Below, piece after piece: positions 439 through 52,691 of a stretch of 64,000 nucleotides of DNA. The notes beneath the pieces were generated by a model. The model ran no database searches. It was not told where the DNA came from and saw only the letters and a program-made list of their open reading frames with translations. This DNA is from an uncultured Holophagales bacterium. Its GTDB lineage: Bacteria > Acidobacteriota > Thermoanaerobaculia > Multivoradales > UBA5704. A program made the translations under genes and the position numbers. Position 1 is the first letter of the stretch. Every line of letters begins with the position of its first letter. Where the stretch lies: assembly GCA_963842525.1 (NCBI GenBank), contig CAWJGT010000001.1:726215-790214 (forward strand), read 5' to 3'.

Positions 439-730
439 GTCCATGAATCTGTCTCCCTGCCTACCAGGGCTTCACCTTCAGCCACGCGACCACGAGGTTG
501 GTGTGCTCGTTGAAATCGTCAATCTCGCGGGCACAACGCGCAACAAAACCACAGTCATGGACTGTGAAAACCAGCGCCCGCAAAAAAGGCTCACGTCCAC
601 GACCACAACCCTTGTGGGAACCACAGCGGCCAGGGCGTCTCCTCCAAGGCCCCCGACACCACGAGGCCACCGCTCGGCACACGCCGACCACCCTGCGGCG
701 CCGGCCGATGGACCTGCGAGGCGCGATGGC

Positions 731-940
731 GGACCTGCAGGTCAAGCCAGTCGACCTGCAGGGTGCGCTGGTGAACCTGCGGGTCAAGCGGGTGAACCTG
801 CAGGGTGCGCGGGTCAACCTGCAGGTCCACCTGGCGAACCTCCAGGTCCACCTCGTCACGCCGCAGGTCCACCGGCAGACGCCGAAGGGCAGGCCCGCTG
901 ACCCGCAGGTCCACCGGCAGACGCCGCAGGGTGGCAGGGG
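731..940. repeat. About 10 tandem copies of a 21-bp unit (aacctgcagggtgcgcgggtc-like); the coding frame is ambiguous
   Basis: Seen directly: gacctgcaggtcaagccagtc / gacctgcagggtgcgctggtg / aacctgcgggtcaagcgggtg / aacctgcagggtgcgcgggtc / aacctgcaggtccacctggcg ... . One frame reads as a heptad 'VNLQGAR VNLQVHL ANLQVHL', another reads 'GEPAGQA GEPAGCA'. Confidence 0.8.
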
Positions 941-3900: not shown

Positions 3901-4559
3901 CCGAGGAATGCCGGAGTCAGGGCCGTGAGGTCGATCCGCTCCCCAGCGCGGGCGAACCGTTGCAGGACTTCGGCTGCTTCCTGGCCAAGGAGCGACAGAT
4001 CCAGGGCCGGGAGGTCGATCCGCTCCGCAGCGAGGGTGGACAGGTGCAGCTTTCCCTTCTCTCCGGTGGTCCCGCCACCATCGACGGGCCGCCAGCCGGT
4101 GTTCTCCTCCCGAAAATTGAACCCCTGGGGCCCGCTGGCGGAGAAACGGATTCCCGCGAGTGGCTGCCCTTCGGGTCCCAGGACCGTCACCTCGGTCTCG
4201 ACCGCGGGCTTCAGCCGGGCCGGCGGGAGCTCGGTCTCCTCGACCAGCGGTACCGGGTCCCGCTCGACCGCTACGCAACCCGGGGCCTGGACGCGGATGC
4301 GGAAGAGACCCTCCTCGGGAGCGAAAAGCTCGAAGGAACCGTCGGCCAGAGGCCGGGCCGAAGCGAGCGGCGGCGGCTCGGGGCCGCCCGCGAGGAGACG
4401 GAGCGCGTCGTCGTACCCGACAAACGCAGGGAGCAGGTCGATCCGGGCACCGGCGGGAACCGGCGCGGCGATCCGGCCCGTGACCCGCACCGGCGCCGCC
4501 ACGACCGGGAGCGCAGCGGCGAGGACGCAGGCCAGCGCGAAGGCAAGCTGTCTCTGCAT
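957..4559 (-). CDS. Large secreted CarboxypepD_reg-like (Cna-B/PEGA-type) repeat protein, 1200 aa
   Basis: N-terminal signal peptide 'MQRQLAFALACVLAAALPVVAAP'. Many repeats of 'GRVxDxxGxPVAGAxV'. It is a paralog of 5537..9082 and shares its C-terminus '...VTPGGxVQVQVVLEPEP'. Confidence 0.75.
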   Translation of the reverse strand: MQRQLAFALACVLAAALPVVAAPVRVTGRIAAPVPAGARIDLLPAFVGYDDALRLLAGGPEPPPLASARPLADGSFELFAPEEGLFRIRVQAPGCVAVERDPVPLVEETELPPARLKPAVETEVTVLGPEGQPLAGIRFSASGPQGFNFREENTGWRPVDGGGTTGEKGKLHLSTLAAERIDLPALDLSLLGQEAAEVLQRFARAGERIDLTALTPAFLGQEAEAQVGGKETIRLAAGPLRTVEVRGRDGRPVAGAVLWQQRRPITATGAAGRLSLLVPQQRAGLMLEGPTGEWAELTFGPDEDGSKPKVVTLSNSPAVVAGRVLDAATRAPLPGALLWGRRTWVRAGADGGFRLPLAPGSQQASFRAVAAAHVQSSQQPQKGSSPDITVLLDPAGSILGRVVDSEGRPVGDARLEATAPGSERGLLASRDAVWSNPDGSFQIRGLPAAAPYEVRVTREAFAEALLPAWSSSPGQATPPLRIVLSRGSTAVGKVLDEQGAAIPGARLTLRRAAEGGEQNPRRSHDPGRQLFRTISDAAGAFRFQNLFAGRFDLWVEHPKLVSVRLPGVEITGTAGEVDLGTVTLQEGVEVEGRVIDARGAPVEGASVDPYPSTGATVVTGPDGRFRLTGLARGRRFHLSVSREGYAESNLPGLEAPTLEPVQVVLQDLALRRLTGRVLDPEGRPVAGAQVITFTEHERGLGGGKTGYGHWSYHPTTTDGEGKFVLTGDAGEVSFGVRAPGYRMRLVRGLRFPEQGDAAPVEVTLERGAILEGRVVDGRGEPVAGADVRAHLEDRDDRMLSSPHGATDTEGRYRLEGLELGEHNVMVRVEGNDQLLQRPTEVRPGVNRLDFAFDSGVEVSGRVTDAQGTPLPAVALLLRPVRSRQTFSTRSRMDGTFLFPAVTNGIFQLEGSASGFARTLDPREVHIAGRPVEGLELRLARGARIVGSLLGLPADELAGAEIVAMLEGPPGGRLFGTVGPGSRYQIPDAAPGTWRVFAYLYPHRQAEGSVEVAPAGEEVVLDLQFAAGLKLSGQVLLDGKPLPGTDILVASQRQGSETRRASTRYDGSFEIDGLQPGAWQLLIAPDAGPGYARSLELTSDQEVSIEISTGSAAGHVLTPAGSPVPEALVSLRGSGPEPDIFFSGPRVQTDDQGAFEFPRLAAGSYLLKVEKDGFAPKETPITVTPGGTVQVQVVLEPEPQG

Positions 4560-4579
4560 ACGCCTCCTGATCAGATCCT

Positions 4580-4690
4580 ATCCGAACGGCCCGTGCTCGA
4601 GCACCACTTGAACCTGCGCCGTGCCGCCGGGTGACGGTGAACTTTTCCTGGCGCGACCGGAACCCGGGCCACCACGCCCGGAGCCGGCTG
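4580..4690 (-). pseudogene. 3'-terminal remnant of a third CarboxypepD_reg paralog
   Basis: 'ctcgagcaccacttgaacctgcgccgtgccgccgggtgacggtgaacttttcctggcgcgaccgg' matches the 3' ends at 957-1030 and 5537-5610 (~85 %). It carries a 2-nt deletion relative to 'gccgccgggggtgacggtg' and has no upstream gene body. Confidence 0.6.
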
Positions 4691-4913
4691 CGCCGAATTC
4701 TGAGCCTCCTGCACCGTGGCGCAGACGACCTGCGCCGTGGCGCGGGCTGCCACGCCGAGGTGCAGGCGGACTACGCCGTGGCGCAGATACCCCACAAAAA
4801 CACCAGGAAACTCTACGAATCGGCTGGCTCAGCCCCCGAACCCGTGTAGCTCGAAGACTTTACGGCGCAGAAAGCCCTGAGCTCGCCCGGCTGGCCGCCG
4901 ACCCGGAGCAGCT

Positions 4914-5300
4914 CTATCCGTCCGTTTTCTGGGCCGCCTCCGAGTACATCGCATCCAGCCCCACCCCGGCCAGCTCCAGCGACACCCCACCCGCCGCGGC
5001 AAGCAACAGCTTCAGCGACTCCGGCGACCGCACCAGGCAGAGCGCCACGTGCAGGGCGGGCGGAATGTCGTCGTTGAACAGCTCCAGGTGCGCCACCACC
5101 CCGCCCCAATCGCCCCGGCTTTCGATGCCATAGCCGAGGAGGTCCGGCTCGCTCCGCAGCCGGAACGCCTGATCGCGGCCCGTGGCCGGCAACACCGCCG
5201 CCAGCAGCCGCGCCAGCCACAGGGTCTTGCACACCGCCACCGGCCGGAAGCCCCGAGTATAGCTTTCACCCGGCCGGAACAGCCCGTACCCGTGCTCCAA
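4914..5300 (-). CDS. Hypothetical protein (TTG start); uncertain
   Basis: Protein-like composition ('...GYGIESRGDWGGVVAHLELFNDDIPPALHVAL...'). I recognise no family. Confidence 0.25.
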   Translation of the reverse strand: MEHGYGLFRPGESYTRGFRPVAVCKTLWLARLLAAVLPATGRDQAFRLRSEPDLLGYGIESRGDWGGVVAHLELFNDDIPPALHVALCLVRSPESLKLLLAAAGGVSLELAGVGLDAMYSEAAQKTDG

Positions 5301-5536: not shown

Positions 5537-8500
5537 TCACGGCTCCGGCTCCAGCACCACCTGCACCTGCACCGCGCCGCCGGGGGTGACGGTGAGCTTT
5601 TCCTGGCGCGTTCGGAAGCCATCGGCCCGGATGCTCAGCTCGTAGGTACCCGCGGCCACGCCCGGCATCTCGAAATCGCCCGCATCGCCGGTCCTCGCGG
5701 CGAGCGCCGAGGTCCATGCCGTCTGGTCGTAGACGAGGCCGTGCGCCAGGATCTCCACTCCGGAGACCGGCTCGCCGCTGGCCGCCAGGACCCGTCCGGC
5801 GATCGCACCGGTCGCGATCTCGATGTCGATCTCGCGGTCGGACGTCAGCTCCACCTGCTGGCCGTGTACGATGCCGCGGCCTTCGTGGAGGATCGTCAAC
5901 TGGTAGGTGCCGGGCGCGAGGGCCGGAATGGAGAACGCGCCTTCGTAGCCGGTCCGTGCTTCGCCCCCGAACGGCCCTCTCTGCCCTGGCCCGTAAGCCG
6001 TCAGCTTCGCACCCCGCAGCGGCTCGCCGTCCACCAGCACGCGCCCGCTCAGGGTCACCCCCTTCTCGAAGCTCAGGTCGAGATGGACCTCGCGATCTTC
6101 CGGCTCGATCCGGACCGTCCCGGCGGCCTTCCGGCCGGACGGTGTGGTCGCGGTCACGTTCCAGTCGCCGGGCGTGAGGCCCTCGACGGTGTAGCTCCCA
6201 TCCCAGCTCGCACGGCCCTGACGATCGAAGTCGAAGCGCTTGCTGGTCCCGATCTGCACCTGTGCGAGCTCCTCCGGGTCCAGGCCGGAAATCCGCCCCC
6301 GGAGGGTAGCTTCCGGCTGGCGCTTCAGCCGGACCTCGATCCCGGAGACCGGTGCTCCCGCTACCTGCATCGGGCTCGGATCCGCTTCGGCGAACCCCTG
6401 GCGCCGGACCGTCAGTCTGTAGGTCCCATCCTTGACGTAGGACAGAAGGAACGATCCGTCGGCCGCGGTGGAGGACCCGAAGCCCGAGACGTTGTCATTG
6501 CGCAGGATGACCTCGGCGCCGGAGATGGGATCTCCCGACTCCTCGTCGAGCACCTGGCCGGAGACCTCGACGCCGGCGGCCTTCTCCAGGACGATCTCGA
6601 CCTCGTTGGCCCCGGGCTGGACCGTGACCTTCACCTCGGCCGGCAGGCCGACGGCAGACATGGCGGTGACCGAAAACACTCCCGGCTCGAGGTTCAGAGA
6701 GAATCGTCCATTGCCGTCCGTGAGAGCTCTTTCGCTCTGCCAGGAGGCGCGCCGGGTGGCACCGATCTCCTCCGAGGACCGGACCGGCCGCGCCCAGATG
6801 CTGACCTTCGGCAAGGGCTCACCTGCCGAATCGCGCACGCGGCCGTCCAGCACGGAGCCCCCTTCGAGCGAGATCTCCAGGCCGTCGAGGTCCCGGTTGT
6901 CCGGAACCCGCAGGCCGAACAGGCGCCGATTCTTGTAGCCGCGGGCGGCGACCTCCAGATCGAGGCTCCCGGGCGGCAGGTTCGGGATCCGGAACTCTCC
7001 GTCCGGCCCCGTCCGGCCCCCCTCCCGCGTCGACTGGGAGATGCCGCCTCTGGCCCTGTCGTCCTGGACGAGGAGGACGCTGGCGTCCACGACCGGCTCG
7101 CCGCTCGGGCCGAGCACCCTGCCGGAGGCGCTGCGGGCGGTGGCGAGCTCGATGTCGAGGGGCACCAGGGTCGGGGCCTGCACGCCCATCGCCTCGGCAG
7201 GAGGATGGCCGGGATGCACGATCCGCAGGTCGTAGCGCCTCCCGGGCCGGAGGTCGGCGAGGAGGAAGCGGCCGTCCGCGCCGGTCCGCGCCCGTAACTG
7301 GGGCTCTGGCGGGAGAGGTGGATGCTCCATGCTCATCCTTCCACGGACCGGGAGCGCCGCGATCTCGGCCCCTGCGACCGGTGCTCCCTGGCGGTCCCGC
7401 ACGGTCCCCTCCAGGGCCGCTCCGCGAAGGAGGGTCACGACGCCGAGGTCGGTGGCGGGTGTGCTGGCGATCTCGACGCCGGCACGGCGGAGCGGAGCGA
7501 ACCCCCGGCGCTCCACCTTCAGGTCGTACAGGCCCGGGCTCAGCCGGCGGACCTCGAAGCGGCCGTCTGCACCAGACGAAGCGCGAAATTCCTCCTCGTC
7601 GAACCCCATCGGCCCCGGGACCGCCAGGCTCACCGCGGTGCCTCCCACCGGCTGCCCGGACTCGTCGACCAGCCGGCCGCGCGCCGACCGGCCGGTGTCC
7701 AGGACGATCCGGACCGGAGCCGGCGCACGGCCCGGGGATGCCGTGCGGGCCGTGGCCGAGGCACGGGCAAACCCGTCCGCGGACACGGAGAGCTGGTAGA
7801 TCGCCCGCGGCAGGAGGCCCCGCAGCCGGAAGCGGCCGTCCGGCCTGCTCCAGGCGCGCTCCCCTTCTCTGAAGTACCGGGGGCGGGCGTCCTCCAGGGT
7901 TTCGACGCGGGCCCATGGCACCGGCCTCCCCTGCGCGTCCTCGATGCGGCCCTCGACAGCGGCCTCGAGGCGCAGCGCGACCGCCACCTCGACGCCGCGG
8001 ACCGGCAGGTAGTCCGGGCTCAGGTATCCCGCGGCGAAGACGCCGAGCTGGGGAGAGAGACCCCAGGGCACCGGCAGGCGGAAGCGGCCGGACACATCTG
8101 TCCGGACCGGCGGCGCGCTAAGCCGGGGCTCGCTCCAGACGAGGGCACCGGCCACGGGCCTGCCGGAGCCGGCCTCGGTCACCCGCCCGCGGACGAGCTG
8201 CGGCGGCGCGGTCCACAGCGGCCACGGCCGCCCCGGGACCAGGGCCGGTGGAGGTGCATTCGGGATGCCGGCCCACCGGCCGTCCGGCGTCTCGATCGTC
8301 AGGAGCTGCGCTCCGTGGATCTCTTCGAGGCTCACCTTCAACCGCCCGTCGGGACCGGAGAGGCCGACCGGCTGCGATCCCCGGCGGAGGAGAGCCCGCG
8401 GCACCGGACGGCCCTCGGCGCCCTGGATCTCGACGAGGTAGAGAACGGCGGGTTGTCGGAGCTCCACCGAGGAGCCATCGACCGCTTGCTGCACCAGCCA

Positions 8501-49439: not shown

Positions 49440-49880
49440 TTGGAAATCGAGCCCCGCAGGGGCGGACGGAATTAGCCCGGTACGTCAGTGCCGGGTTGGG
49501 AGGCACAAATCCACCATCCAGCCCCGGTAGGGGCGGCAGGAAATCCGGTGGGTTGAAATGCGTTCGGTTCCCGGGATTGAAATCCATACCTTTACACACA
49601 TCTCAAAGCGCCCCTTGTGGGCGCGGGCGCGTAGACCCGGGTTTCAACCCGGGGTCGCGGAGGCCCGGCCCGTTTCGAGCCCCTTTCAGGGGCGTCGGCG
49701 AGGATGGCGCACAGGCCCGCCGTCCTCGGGCACCGCACACCGACGGCATTGCGCTTCCGTCTGCGCCATCGCCCCTGAAAGGGGCGCAGGGAGGATTGGT
49801 GGATCTCGCACCCCGGGTTGAAACCCGGGGCTATGTGCCAGCGCCCACAAGGGGCGCTTCCCCCACCCTCCCGGACAGGA
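49440..49880. repeat. Composite GC-rich multi-hairpin element with UUCG/GNRA-type tetraloops, arranged as a ~95-bp imperfect inverted repeat around a ~65-bp core
   Basis: Left arm 49607-49697: gcgcccc-ttgtg-ggcgc; gacccggg-tttcaa-cccggg; gcccct-ttc-aggggc. It is mirrored at 49764-49862 as cgcccct-gaa-aggggcg; ccccggg-ttgaaa-cccgggg; gcgccc-acaa-ggggcgc. Confidence 0.75.
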
Positions 49881-50212: not shown

Positions 50213-50881
50213 ATGAAACAGACAATCGACAGTCGCTTTGCTGACCTAGTGGATCAAGGCCATCGCCTCTTAAGCGAGCTTCCTCTTGACAATAATAACC
50301 TCGGATATTGGGTGCTCAGGGAGTCTATCCCCAAATACCAGGCATGGATAGCCTCGACTGTTAACCTGCTAAGCAACATCGCGCTACCAGCAAGTTACTA
50401 TGTCGAGGAAAGCAGACGATTGGTTTCCGACAAGGACTTGGCGAGGGGAATACCGACGCACGTAGTGCAGAAGCTTTGCGCTCTCCTTGTATCTGCCTAC
50501 GAAGAATGGAATGCGGGGCTCCTTAAGAGAATTGAGTATGTGCTGATCGCGGCAACATTTGACGACTTCCTCGAACACGCTGCCCCTTATCATAAAGGAA
50601 ATAAAAAAACAGAGGCCGCCGTTCTGGCGAGCGCTGTGCTTGAAGATACCATAAAGAAGATCGCCGAAAAGCAAGGCATAGAAACGAGTGGCAAGAGCTT
50701 GGAGCAACTAGTGGATGCCCTCGTTAGCGCCTCGGTGTTTTCCTTAGTTCAAGGCAAGAGGGTAAAGGTCTATTCCGGAGTACGTAATCACGCGCTTCAC
50801 GCTGAATGGGACCGTTTTGAAATCAGAGACGTCGGAGAGTTGATCAAGGGCACACGGACCCTTATCGAGGATTTTGTTTGA
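50213..50881 (+). CDS. HEPN-type (Rx4H) Abi-like hypothetical protein in a low-GC islet
   Basis: ~48 % GC by eye. C-terminal 'VRNHALHAEWDRFE' fits the HEPN R-x4-H motif. No signal peptide. Confidence 0.5.
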   Translation: MKQTIDSRFADLVDQGHRLLSELPLDNNNLGYWVLRESIPKYQAWIASTVNLLSNIALPASYYVEESRRLVSDKDLARGIPTHVVQKLCALLVSAYEEWNAGLLKRIEYVLIAATFDDFLEHAAPYHKGNKKTEAAVLASAVLEDTIKKIAEKQGIETSGKSLEQLVDALVSASVFSLVQGKRVKVYSGVRNHALHAEWDRFEIRDVGELIKGTRTLIEDFV

Positions 50882-50983: not shown

Positions 50984-51220
50984 ATGCCAAGCTTCACACA
51001 CCTGCAGGGCCAATATCTCGCTTTCATCGACGCGTACACGAAAGTGAGCGGTCGTCCACCGGCGGAGGCTGACTTCCTGCGCTACTTCAAAGTCTCGCCG
51101 CCCTCGGTCCACCAGATGATCCTTACGCTTGATCGCCTCGGACTCATTACACGTTTGCCGGGCCAAGCGCGATCCATTCGTCTGAATCTTCCGTCCAACG
51201 AGATTCCGCGTCTCGAGTAG
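50984..51220 (+). CDS. Small winged-helix-like protein (possible regulator or iteron-binding protein)
   Basis: 'SPPSVHQMILTLDRLGLITRLPGQARSIRL' resembles a winged-HTH. Low GC. Confidence 0.4.
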   Translation: MPSFTHLQGQYLAFIDAYTKVSGRPPAEADFLRYFKVSPPSVHQMILTLDRLGLITRLPGQARSIRLNLPSNEIPRLE

Positions 51221-51221
51221 G

Positions 51222-51460
51222 AGTGCAAGCCCAAAGGGCGTGGCGAAGGTGCCCCGAAGGGGCTCTGGCGTAAAGCCTGGCGCTTCAGCGCCAGGTTGGC
51301 GTTCCCCAAACTCTCCGGAGCCCCGAAGGGGCGCAGGCATTGCGTCAAATTTGCCGTCGCCCCTTCGGGGCTTGGAGGCGTGGAGGACCCTGACCTGGCG
51401 CTGAAGCGCCAGGCTTTATGCCTGCGCCCCTTCGGGGCTCCTCGTCGCCGTCGTCGTTGG
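51222..51460. repeat. Nested inverted repeats of small hairpins (gccccGAAggggc / gccccTTCGgggc; cctggcgcTTCAgcgccagg)
   Basis: Left arm 51240-51300 mirrors right arm 51385-51445. An inner inverted repeat lies at 51322-51372. Confidence 0.7.
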
Positions 51461-51520: not shown

Positions 51521-51850
51521 TACGACGCCCAGCGTAAGCTTATCCAAGCCAGATAAGCTTACACTGGCTCAGATAAGGGTATCCGCGCCAGATAGTGTTA
51601 TCTGCGCCAGATAAGCCCACGCTGGCCTGGATAAGCTTATCTGCGCCGGATAAGCTTATCCACGCTGGATAACGTTATCTACGGCAGATAGTGTTATCTG
51701 GGGCAGATAAGCTTATCTGCGCTGGATAAGCTTACACTGGCGTGGATACCGTTATCCGCGCTGGATAGTGTTATCTGCGGCAGATACGCTTATCCGTCTT
51801 GGATACGCTTATCTGCGCCGGATACGCTTACACTGAGCTGGATAACGTTC
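51521..51850. repeat. 17 direct tandem copies of a ~20-bp palindromic unit (consensus cyGGATAAGCTTATCYGCG) that contains DnaA-box-like 9-mers (TTATCCACG, TTATCTGCG, TTATCCGCG)
   Basis: Units read off directly: gataagcttacactggctca / gataagggtatccgcgcca / gatagtgttatctgcgcca / ... / gataacgttctctacgtca. No spacers separate them. Confidence 0.85.
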
Positions 51851-51902
51851 TCTACGTCAGATCATTTAAACAGCGGTGGATGTCTGTGGAGAAGGGCGCG
51901 GA

Positions 51903-51928
51903 ACAAGGGGGAGCGTGGCGGGCACGCT
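51903..51928 (-). terminator. 10-bp GC hairpin (ggggagcgtg-gcgg-gcacgctcccc) just downstream of the minus-strand gene ending at 51946; no clear U-tract
   Basis: Perfect stem seen in the sequence. Confidence 0.3.
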
Positions 51929-51945
51929 CCCCGGAGGAGTGACAC

Positions 51946-52318
51946 TTACTGCGGATCGATCGCGAGGACCGCGGGAGTGGCGGGGTCGGGCGGCGTCTTG
52001 GCCTTGCGGCCGCGGAACGGCTGGAGGTGGAATTCCGCGAGCTTCTCCGACCGCAGGCCGTAGTGCTGCTGGAGGATCTTGCCTGCCGCGGTCGCCAGCC
52101 TTTCGCCTTCGGTGAGCAGCGTACGGATGCGCTTGCTCGCCTCCTGCTTGCTGGCGACGAGGGCGGCGTGCTCCCGCACGACTCCTTGCGCTTCGGCCAG
52201 GATCGCCTCGATCCGGACGCGAAGGCCTTCCAGGTGGGTGAGCTCGGCAGCGTTGGCGAGCAGCGCGGCGATGAATCGCGCCAGTGCGCCCAGCTTCCCT
52301 GCATAGGTACGTTCAGAC
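51946..52318 (-). CDS. Hypothetical coiled-coil protein
   Basis: 'MSERTYAGKLGALARFIAALLANAAELTHLEGLRVRIEAILAEAQ...'. No family recognised. Confidence 0.4.
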
Positions 52319-52691
52319 ATTTTGCTTCTCCTTTTTGAGCCCGAGGGGGCTCGAACACCCGGCGCCGGAAGCGGCGCCTGATGTGTGCATAGAGTCCACG
52401 ACTTTCCCGGCGGTGTCAAGAGCCTCGTTGACTTTCCCGGTCGACTGTGCGAGCCTCCTGCATATTGAAGGACGCGCGATGATGCCGATCGACCGAGCAG
52501 GACGATCGGGAACGCAAGGCTCTTTGACAATAGAGAAGGACGGCGGCCCCCGGGTCCAAGGGCGCCGCCGTCCGCCCGGACGGGTCCGCTGTGTTCCGGC
52601 GGACCCGGTCCCTGTTTCTCCGGCACCTACCCCTTGCAAGACTATGGGAAGGTGCGGTAACGTCTTCGCAGGCGAAAGAGGAGAGCCTGCG

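Follow-up and report, generated by a model that had tools for sequence, protein, structure and literature searches.

A tandem array of 19-20-bp sites lies directly behind the gene of a small helical protein in Thermoanaerobaculia-type Acidobacteria and may form a dedicated DNA-binding platform

The chromosomal stretch of 64,000 nucleotides analysed here, which derives from an uncultured Holophagales bacterium (contig CAWJGT010000001.1, positions 726,215 to 790,214) and is referred to below as the window, contains 17 short repeat units that stand head to tail immediately behind the gene for a 124-residue protein, p124. The same arrangement of a p124-family gene, a terminator and a repeat array recurs in all five of the independent lineages that were sampled. 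We interpret the array as a selected, phased duplex-DNA binding platform that is coupled to the p124 gene and is probably bound by p124, and we assign this interpretation a probability of about 0.5. The features of the window on which it is based are as follows.

51533-51859, no strand: tandem array, each unit consisting of a 12-bp core, GATA-N4-TATC, and a variable GC-rich spacer of 7-8 bp
51908-51932, minus strand: terminator-like GC-rich hairpin with a 10-bp stem, 14 bp past the p124 stop codon and between the gene and the array
51946-52320, minus strand: p124 gene, 124 amino acids, with its ATG at 52320 and an AAGGAG ribosome-binding site upstream
52321-52480, minus strand: leader and promoter region of p124, collinear with the metagenomic locus L012

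A unit-by-unit regular-expression parse of the sequence places the array at 51533-51859 and confirms the 17 tandem units reported in a preliminary description of this DNA, as well as its remark that the sites, with no spacing between units, are far denser than those of an ordinary operator. The period of 20 bp given in that description proved to be inaccurate, as 13 of the 17 units are 19 bp long and only four are 20 bp, the longer form recurring as a GATAAGCTTACACTGGC-type variant at positions 51552, 51610, 51725, and 51821. Tandem Repeats Finder (TRF) reports a period of 19 with 15.4 copies at 51535-51830, in addition to higher-order periods of 38, 77, and 96 bp that extend to 51862. The units had also been described as palindromic. 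A perfect GATA-N4-TATC, with a degenerate extension to YRGATA-N4-TATCYR, is present in 11 of the 17. The central four bases vary from unit to unit (AGCT, GTGT, CGCT, ACGT, CCGT, AGGG); GATAAGCTTATC occurs in three copies and one degenerate copy, and GATAACGTTATC in one copy. The 11 perfect sites are the only ones in the entire window, for which dinucleotide shuffling predicts 0.10, and none of 100 shuffled sequences reached 11. Information content is 2.0 bits per position at T3 and at TATC, compared with 0.5-1.1 bits at the centre of the core and in the spacer. The array is a genuine and highly non-random element, and its conserved component is the GATA/TATC pair rather than one specific 12-mer.

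The array is non-coding, because its period is not a multiple of three and because the palindromic core contains TAA on both strands. An Rfam scan of the array returned matches at noise level only. Clustered regularly interspaced short palindromic repeats (CRISPR) were considered as well and rejected, since these require repeats of 23-50 bp and unique spacers of at least 26 bp, and the elements found here are a 12-bp core and a 7-bp spacer with a period of 19.

The central observation is the linkage of array and gene. Loci of the p124 family were chosen by the availability of DNA, and not by the presence of repeats, and they represent five lineages, with the window and L012 counted as one. Each of the five has, directly 3' of the p124-family terminator and at a distance of 0-60 bp, a series of 15-28 tandem units, each 19-20 bp long. 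The p124 proteins of the sampled lineages are 57-74% identical to that of the window. The arrays are listed below by locus, together with the positions of the divergent argR-p124 gene pairs that are discussed later.

Window: core GATAAGCTTATC, 17 units, 13 of 19 bp and four of 20 bp
L012: core GATAAGCTTATC, about 16 units
L062: core GTAAGCTTCGG, 28 units, all 28 exactly 20 bp
L059/60/61: core CAGCTTCTCCA, 21 parsed units of 19-20 bp, with two double-length gaps; argR pair at 5247-5729 of L059
L063: core CTCCAAACTTTACG, 26 units, all 26 exactly 20 bp; argR pair at 4367-4813
L064/65: core TCGAATTAGCCGG, 23 parsed units, mostly 20 bp; argR pair at 4291-4737 of L064

A p124-family gene, a terminator hairpin, and at least 15 repeat units are found together in the window, L012, L059, L062, L063, and L064, and a hidden Markov model (HMM) scan of all fetched loci detected the gene only at loci that carry this module. 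The terminator hairpin of the window has an RNA folding energy of -22.5 kcal/mol (z = -2.45), and similar hairpins followed by runs of T occupy the same position in L012, L059, L062, L063, and L064. Public gene calls leave the array stretches uncalled.

A scan of genomes and metagenomes with a degenerate three-unit array pattern also led to the gene. Among its 51 metagenomic matches, only L012 resembles the window array beyond the searched pattern, and L012 carries a p124 gene. This locus has a GC content of 65% and about 16 units of GGATAAGCTTATCTGCGCC, and its positions 293-1221 align by blastn with window positions 51550-52472 at 72.8% identity over 953 bp, a stretch that comprises the array, the GC-rich hairpin, the small minus-strand gene, and the region upstream of that gene. 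Of the four matches obtained in genomes, three are 19-bp satellites rich in AT that chance could account for, and the fourth, L004, is similar to the window array. The other metagenomic matches are nearly all AT-rich satellites of 19-20 bp. A 19-bp satellite, TGTGTGATATAACGATCAC, which is unrelated to the window array and was matched only through its content of GATA-N4-TATC, is present in 8-25 copies on five contigs (L017, L019, L023, L032, and L038, from the related metagenome samples Ga0307945 to Ga0307975), and other long AT-rich satellites of 19-20 bp were noted in L009 (39 copies), L022 (46 copies), and L045 (56 copies).

Comparison of the arrays reveals which of their parts are conserved. 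In all lineages, the core is AT-rich and carries 1.4-2.0 bits per position, compared with 0.2-1.0 bits in the GC-rich spacers, and the conserved AT-rich cores are 8-14 bp long. No insertion or deletion is found through the 54 diverged units of L062 and L063. Between the window and L012, the number of units and the placement of the 20-bp variant differ, and GATA/TATC is near-invariant in both. Both the cores and their spacing are under constraint. AA(G/A)CTT or CAGCTT is common to four of the five cores and always points the same way with respect to the gene, which fits a conserved binder that makes lineage-specific flanking contacts. In the window lineage, the core is flanked by a purine at -1 and a pyrimidine at +1 without covariation of the pair (A:T 5, A:C 4, G:T 11, G:C 4). 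Symmetric flanks that do not covary fit the recognition of duplex DNA by a dimer, and not a hairpin.

The window p124 has 529 homologues and, where a source is named, they come from Thermoanaerobaculia or from metagenome-assembled genomes (MAGs) of Acidobacteria. A profile search of the p124 family yielded 1019 clusters at 50% identity; the 150 that were listed are without exception stand-alone proteins of approximately 120-140 residues. No match to p124 was found in Pfam, NCBIfam, PADLOC, or the PDB. The identical protein P0121 and a paralogue of 76% identity, P0128, are evidently encoded on the same contig, which suggests that the family has at least two copies per genome. In three lineages, argR lies upstream of the p124-family gene in divergent orientation, with a gap of 190-270 bp. 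The p124 gene of the window is paired with PadR and a MacB-type permease, not with argR, and it may therefore be a secondary paralogue. ARG boxes are likewise spaced by about 20-21 bp, and ArgR was considered as the binder of the array. The specificity of ArgR is, however, conserved across bacteria, while the array cores vary and the window copy is not beside argR, and this candidate was rejected by inference.

An AlphaFold2 model of p124, computed with 48 homologues, has a mean predicted local distance difference test (pLDDT) score of 80.9. It predicts a bundle of three helices (residues 6-22, 28-52, and 58-87), followed by a short helix (92-97) and a tail of low confidence. The C-terminus contains the conserved motif LQPFRGRK (residues 99-106) and then a proline-rich tail that is predicted to be disordered. 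Pro101, Phe102, and Arg103 are among the invariant residues in an alignment of the 48 closest sequences, and the basic segment P-F-R-G-R-K as a whole is invariant in these 48 and variable in wider relatives. Among 38 more distant relatives, Gly88 is the only invariant residue; Pro101 and Arg103 are conserved in more than 90%, and Phe102 is often replaced by leucine.

The nucleoid proteins H-NS and Lsr2 insert a Q/RGR hook, carried on a folded C-terminal domain, into the DNA minor groove. The R-G-R segment of p124 recalls this hook, a mode of binding for which cores rich in AT, set in a genome rich in GC, would be well suited; we offer the analogy as a lead. Further points of resemblance are the small size of the protein, its N-terminal helical domain, the conserved basic R-G-R, and AT-rich targets in a genome of about 68% GC. 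Unlike in H-NS and Lsr2, however, the RGR segment of p124 lies in a probably disordered tail, and the targets form one dedicated phased array rather than dispersed AT-rich islands. No sequence or fold match between p124 and H-NS or Lsr2 was found, nor does the model show a folded domain around FRGRK.

In the mechanism that we propose, array and p124 gene together make up a chromosomal module of two parts, in which the array is the component that acts in cis. A sequence-specific protein would assemble cooperatively on the phased sites, with one protomer or one dimer per unit, to give a nucleoprotein filament of approximately 330-560 bp. The most economical candidate for this protein is p124, which could be captured in cis while it is made beside the array. 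In the window lineage, the site has become a two-fold symmetric palindrome of 12-16 bp, suggesting that a dimer binds there. As 19-20 bp correspond to about 1.8-1.9 helical turns, successive sites would spiral slowly round the DNA, in the manner of superhelical ParR-parC filaments. The two likeliest uses of such a filament would be as a self-titrating reservoir of the protein or as a mark that positions or organises the chromosome, and a role as a roadblock is also conceivable. We infer that a protein binds the array, which protein this is, and what the array is for, and the first of these only from the conserved linkage between gene and array.

The comparison with ParR and parC merits a closer look. 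In the type II and type Ib plasmid centromeres, such as parC of R1 and parC of pSK41, whose 20-bp tandem repeats are bound by ParR, cooperative coating of the repeats produces a superhelical nucleoprotein filament. The p124 module shares with these systems a series of contiguous, phased short repeats beside a gene whose small product ends in a disordered tail. It departs from them in that p124 is not a ribbon-helix-helix protein, in that the array is located 3' of the gene and not in its promoter, and in that the locus is chromosomal. In the window and in three other lineages, no NTPase of the ParM, ParA, or TubZ type adjoins the module, so that, of the features that define a ParR centromere, the phased contiguous repeats are present and both the ribbon-helix-helix protein and the neighbouring NTPase are absent.

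Several observations weigh against the assignment of the array to p124. The RGR segment falls in a region of the model with a pLDDT of only about 50-60 that is probably disordered. The protein is well conserved, with a mean column identity of 53%, yet the cores diverge strongly between lineages, a combination that sits uneasily with base-specific binding unless specificity is set by a small number of variable residues. In addition, a position weight matrix (PWM) scan showed that in four of the five lineages the promoter of the gene itself lacks the core, and for this reason classical autoregulation is not indicated; PWM scans of promoters for extra core copies gave no convincing case. Upstream of the window p124 gene, a TTGACA-like element and two small hairpins can be discerned by eye, and a consensus sigma-70 promoter was not called. 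A short array resembling that of the window also exists without a p124-family gene within 8 kb. This is L004 (positions 1977-2075 of contig CBDFFS010000002.1, labelled as an Actinoplanes sp. MAG), which consists of five 19-bp units, three of GCTGGATAGTGCTATCCCG followed by two of GCTGGATAGTGCCATTCAG, with 16 of 19 positions identical to a window unit, and which precedes a MIP/aquaporin gene by about 60 bp. Its likeness to the window array is either coincidental or due to a binding specificity shared by the two in different contexts. Finally, the linkage of gene and array is drawn from five lineages only.

Two other explanations account for part of the evidence, and each is judged unlikely. According to the first, the array would act as RNA, produced by read-through of the terminator or as an antisense transcript, and would function as a CsrB-like protein sponge or as a structured RNA. 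The invariable placement of the array directly 3' of the gene in a fixed orientation would suit such a role, its length of 330-560 nt with 15-28 motifs resembles that of sponge RNAs, and the RGR-rich tail of p124 could equally bind RNA. Yet in every lineage a strong intrinsic terminator separates the gene from the array, no promoter-like element precedes the array, and nothing above noise was found in Rfam. Moreover, exact spacing at 20 bp, which is close to two helical turns, is a property of duplex DNA. The window units are symmetric in purines and pyrimidines without base-pair covariation, and those of the other lineages have no hairpin potential.

According to the second, the array would be a neutral minisatellite, a product of slippage beside a terminator that has merely persisted. 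The arrays do turn over, given that L012 and the window have neither the same number of units nor the 20-bp variant in the same places, and the periods of 77 and 96 bp indicate block duplications. Slippage does not, however, readily explain why an array accompanies the gene in five of five lineages whose proteins are only 57-74% identical, why core and spacer differ so sharply in conservation with zero indels in 54 diverged units, or why the core changes from lineage to lineage while placement and period stay constant.

On the far side of the array from p124 lies a group of features, among them the winged-helix ORF and the hairpin blocks that the preliminary description had placed next to the array.

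50984-51220, plus strand: gene for p78, a 78-residue winged-helix-turn-helix (wHTH) protein with a LexA-type domain (Pfam PF01726, LexA_DNA_bind, E = 9.4e-06)
50213-50881, plus strand: open reading frame (ORF) of 222 residues with an R-N-H-A-L-H (Rx4H, HEPN-like) motif near its C-terminus
51394-51439, plus strand: Acido-Lenti-1 RNA motif (RF01687), 49.2 bits in Rfam
51250-51295, minus strand: Acido-Lenti-1, 33.2 bits, below threshold
49450-49495, minus strand: Acido-Lenti-1, 46.4 bits
28393-28436, minus strand: Acido-Lenti-1, 41 bits

That the array might be an operator or decoy for p78 is a natural suggestion, considering that the two are separated by only about 310 bp, that p78 possesses a LexA-type DNA-binding domain, and that palindromic sites suit dimeric wHTH proteins. 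The winged-helix ORF does adjoin the array as described, but it does not appear to be its partner, and we regard this explanation as quite improbable. The p78 family is very large (7741 matches), and at three loci with homologues of 82-86% identity (L005, L006, and L007; contexts of P0020, P0023, and P0005) neither GATA-type sites nor arrays of 19-20 bp were found nearby. Conversely, p78 was not found in the 255 bp that flank the L012 array, the left flank of L012 being unrelated to the window. The array faces the 3' end of p78, and the upstream region of p78 contains no GATA-type site. In addition, p78 and its 222-residue neighbour belong to a separate islet of lower GC content that is bounded by Acido-Lenti-1 elements. 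At two of the three homologue loci, L005 and L006, the wHTH gene is followed at a distance of 1.9-2.3 kb downstream by a reverse transcriptase of a group II intron.

The hairpin blocks that the preliminary description placed next to the array are indeed present, and they are identified as an inverted pair of the known Acido-Lenti-1 element, unrelated to the array. The gathering threshold of RF01687 is 37 bits, which three of the four copies in the window surpass. The pair and the copy at 49450 bracket the islet, which extends from about 49.3 to 51.45 kb with a GC content of 0.555-0.59, and this bracketing suggests either a behaviour like that of repetitive extragenic palindromic (REP) sequences or miniature inverted-repeat transposable elements (MITEs), or an insertion boundary. 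Searches of Pfam, NCBIfam, and PADLOC assigned the 222-residue protein to no family and gave LexA_DNA_bind as the only match of p78; the two genes may constitute a small toxin-regulator or defence-type pair. We treat the islet as an unrelated neighbour of the array, and the wHTH gene and the hairpins as passengers. A block analogous to the Acido-Lenti-1 pair was noticed beyond the array in L059, at 7000-7235, where REP-like GC-rich hairpins form a long inverted repeat (ggggtttcaaccccagg/cctggggttgaaacccc and gggcgaaatttgaatagcc/ggctattcaaatttcgccc).

The proposal that the array represents plasmid-type iterons, with which a replicon now integrated or reduced to a remnant would have initiated replication or controlled its copy number, as at incA of P1 or incC of F, is very doubtful. 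In the repA-incA locus of P1 and the repE-incC locus of F, iterons lie downstream of the initiator gene, the Rep protein is a dual winged-helix protein, and the iterons are asymmetric and number 5-9 units. The 17 units of 19-20 bp in the window fall within the 17-22 bp of iteron direct repeats, they are of the same 19-bp class and equally free of spacers, and they follow a small gene for a presumed binder in the P1 pattern, so that a role in titration or handcuffing is conceivable. The GC content at 49-52 kb is also depressed, at 0.555-0.59 against 0.66-0.71 in the surrounding sequence. However, no initiator of the RepA, pi, or TrfA winged-helix type is adjacent: p124 is predicted to be a three-helix bundle, and p78 is a single LexA-type wHTH protein. 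Neither the array (by blastn) nor p124 (by tblastn) matched any of 72,556 plasmids and 50,697 phages, and the array pattern and the p124 profile retrieved nothing from IMG/VR. No rep gene is present in the window, and no integrase, relaxase, or partition gene lies nearby. The p124 module lacks origin features and is embedded in a chromosomal gene order that is conserved, argR being its divergent neighbour in three lineages. It is lineage-wide, it has 15-28 units rather than 5-9, and in the window lineage the units are palindromic rather than asymmetric.

The remainder of the window agrees with a chromosomal location. It is ordinary high-GC chromosome of about 68% GC, and its products include peptidases, UbiD, penicillin amidase, an amino-acid permease, and a SIS-domain enzyme, as well as PadR and a MacB/FtsX permease, a protein with the C-terminal domain of the DNA polymerase III delta subunit, DksA, a SPOUT protein of the RlmH type, and Def; no tRNA was found in it. 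The reading of the array as an iteron array or origin in the preliminary description is thus not sustained. What survives of the likeness to iterons or to a titration locus is the general architecture and the notion of a sink for some protein, without the specifics of DnaA. The array consists of dense sites of the protein-binding type, and its architecture is closest to iteron and centromere arrays. It is a member of neither family, because the defining proteins of both are absent.

Least probable of all is a cluster of DnaA boxes, whether as a datA-like titration site or as a cryptic or secondary oriC. The units do contain the pentamer TTATC, their density is unusual, and one of them, TTATCCACG at 51656, is one mismatch from the DnaA box TTATCCACA; like datA, the array is a site cluster that could soak up protein. 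Of the 17 units reported previously to carry DnaA-box-like 9-mers, that one alone comes so close to the box. Several 9-mers within one mismatch of TTATNCACA would be expected of a true cluster, and the majority of units (TTATCTGCG and TTATCCGCG) differ from the box by two to three mismatches. Sites within one mismatch of TTATCCACA are not enriched, with four in the window against 2.4 expected, a number equalled by 19 of 100 shuffles. The resemblance is limited to the shared TTATC. The specificity of DnaA is conserved across bacteria, and TTATC is absent from the cores of the sister-lineage arrays at the same position, GTAAGCTTCGG, CAGCTTCTCCA, CTCCAAACTTTACG, and TCGAATTAGCCGG. As the preliminary description had correctly remarked, dnaA and dnaN do not adjoin the array, and among the 30 ORFs of the 64-kb window scanned with Pfam there is neither of these genes, nor any rep or par gene. 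The array has no AT-rich unwinding element, the only AT-rich stretch being one of about 12 bp after it, and the cumulative GC skew reaches its minimum near 31 kb and not at 51.5 kb, although 64 kb is too short to place an origin. In practical terms, a false origin or DnaA annotation is thereby removed.

Repeats of other kinds were also noticed. A tandem repeat of ACCTGCAGGGTGCGCGGGTGA type at 704-930 of the window, with a period of 21/42 bp and about 6-10 units, lies in the region of an ORF with high GC at third codon positions (591-914, minus strand) and is probably a coding segment for heptad repeats. Similar coding-type repeats of 21 bp are found at 4792-5152 and 9898-10183 of L006, near its homologue of the 78-residue wHTH gene. 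At 56283-56365 of the window, just upstream of the gene for the DNA polymerase III delta C-terminal-domain protein, there is a (GAA)n/21-bp repeat, with four copies of GAAGAAGAAGAAGAGGAGGAA and 98% matches, which would encode poly-glutamate if the plus strand were translated.

Literature searches returned no description of an equivalent module, and the pairing of gene and array in Thermoanaerobaculia-type Acidobacteria is apparently undescribed. A dedicated tandem array of sites beside the gene of its presumed binder is a known kind of arrangement, and there is a substantial chance that the present one is a new kind of chromosomal element. A bolder formulation, which we put forward tentatively and with the odds somewhat against it, is that these bacteria possess a new class of chromosomal protein-DNA module, in which a small three-helix protein has, immediately behind its gene, a private binding array whose 15-28 units keep a 20-bp phase. 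The specificity of the array would be diversifying between lineages and possibly between paralogues of a single genome. The module, which would have no relation to Par, Rep, DnaA, or the known nucleoid proteins, would form a dedicated nucleoprotein body, for example a landmark that is centromere-like or has an organising role, or a reservoir that buffers itself.

If the interpretation is true, the p124 module would be a compact natural system of a protein and its own phased DNA track, in a phylum that is poorly studied. It would add a new family of sequence-specific binders of DNA arrays, with several naturally diverged specificities that might not cross-react, and the cooperative assembly of filaments on DNA could be studied in it as a tractable model. 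It would also be a candidate for a chromosomal landmark in a group of bacteria about whose chromosome biology next to nothing is known.
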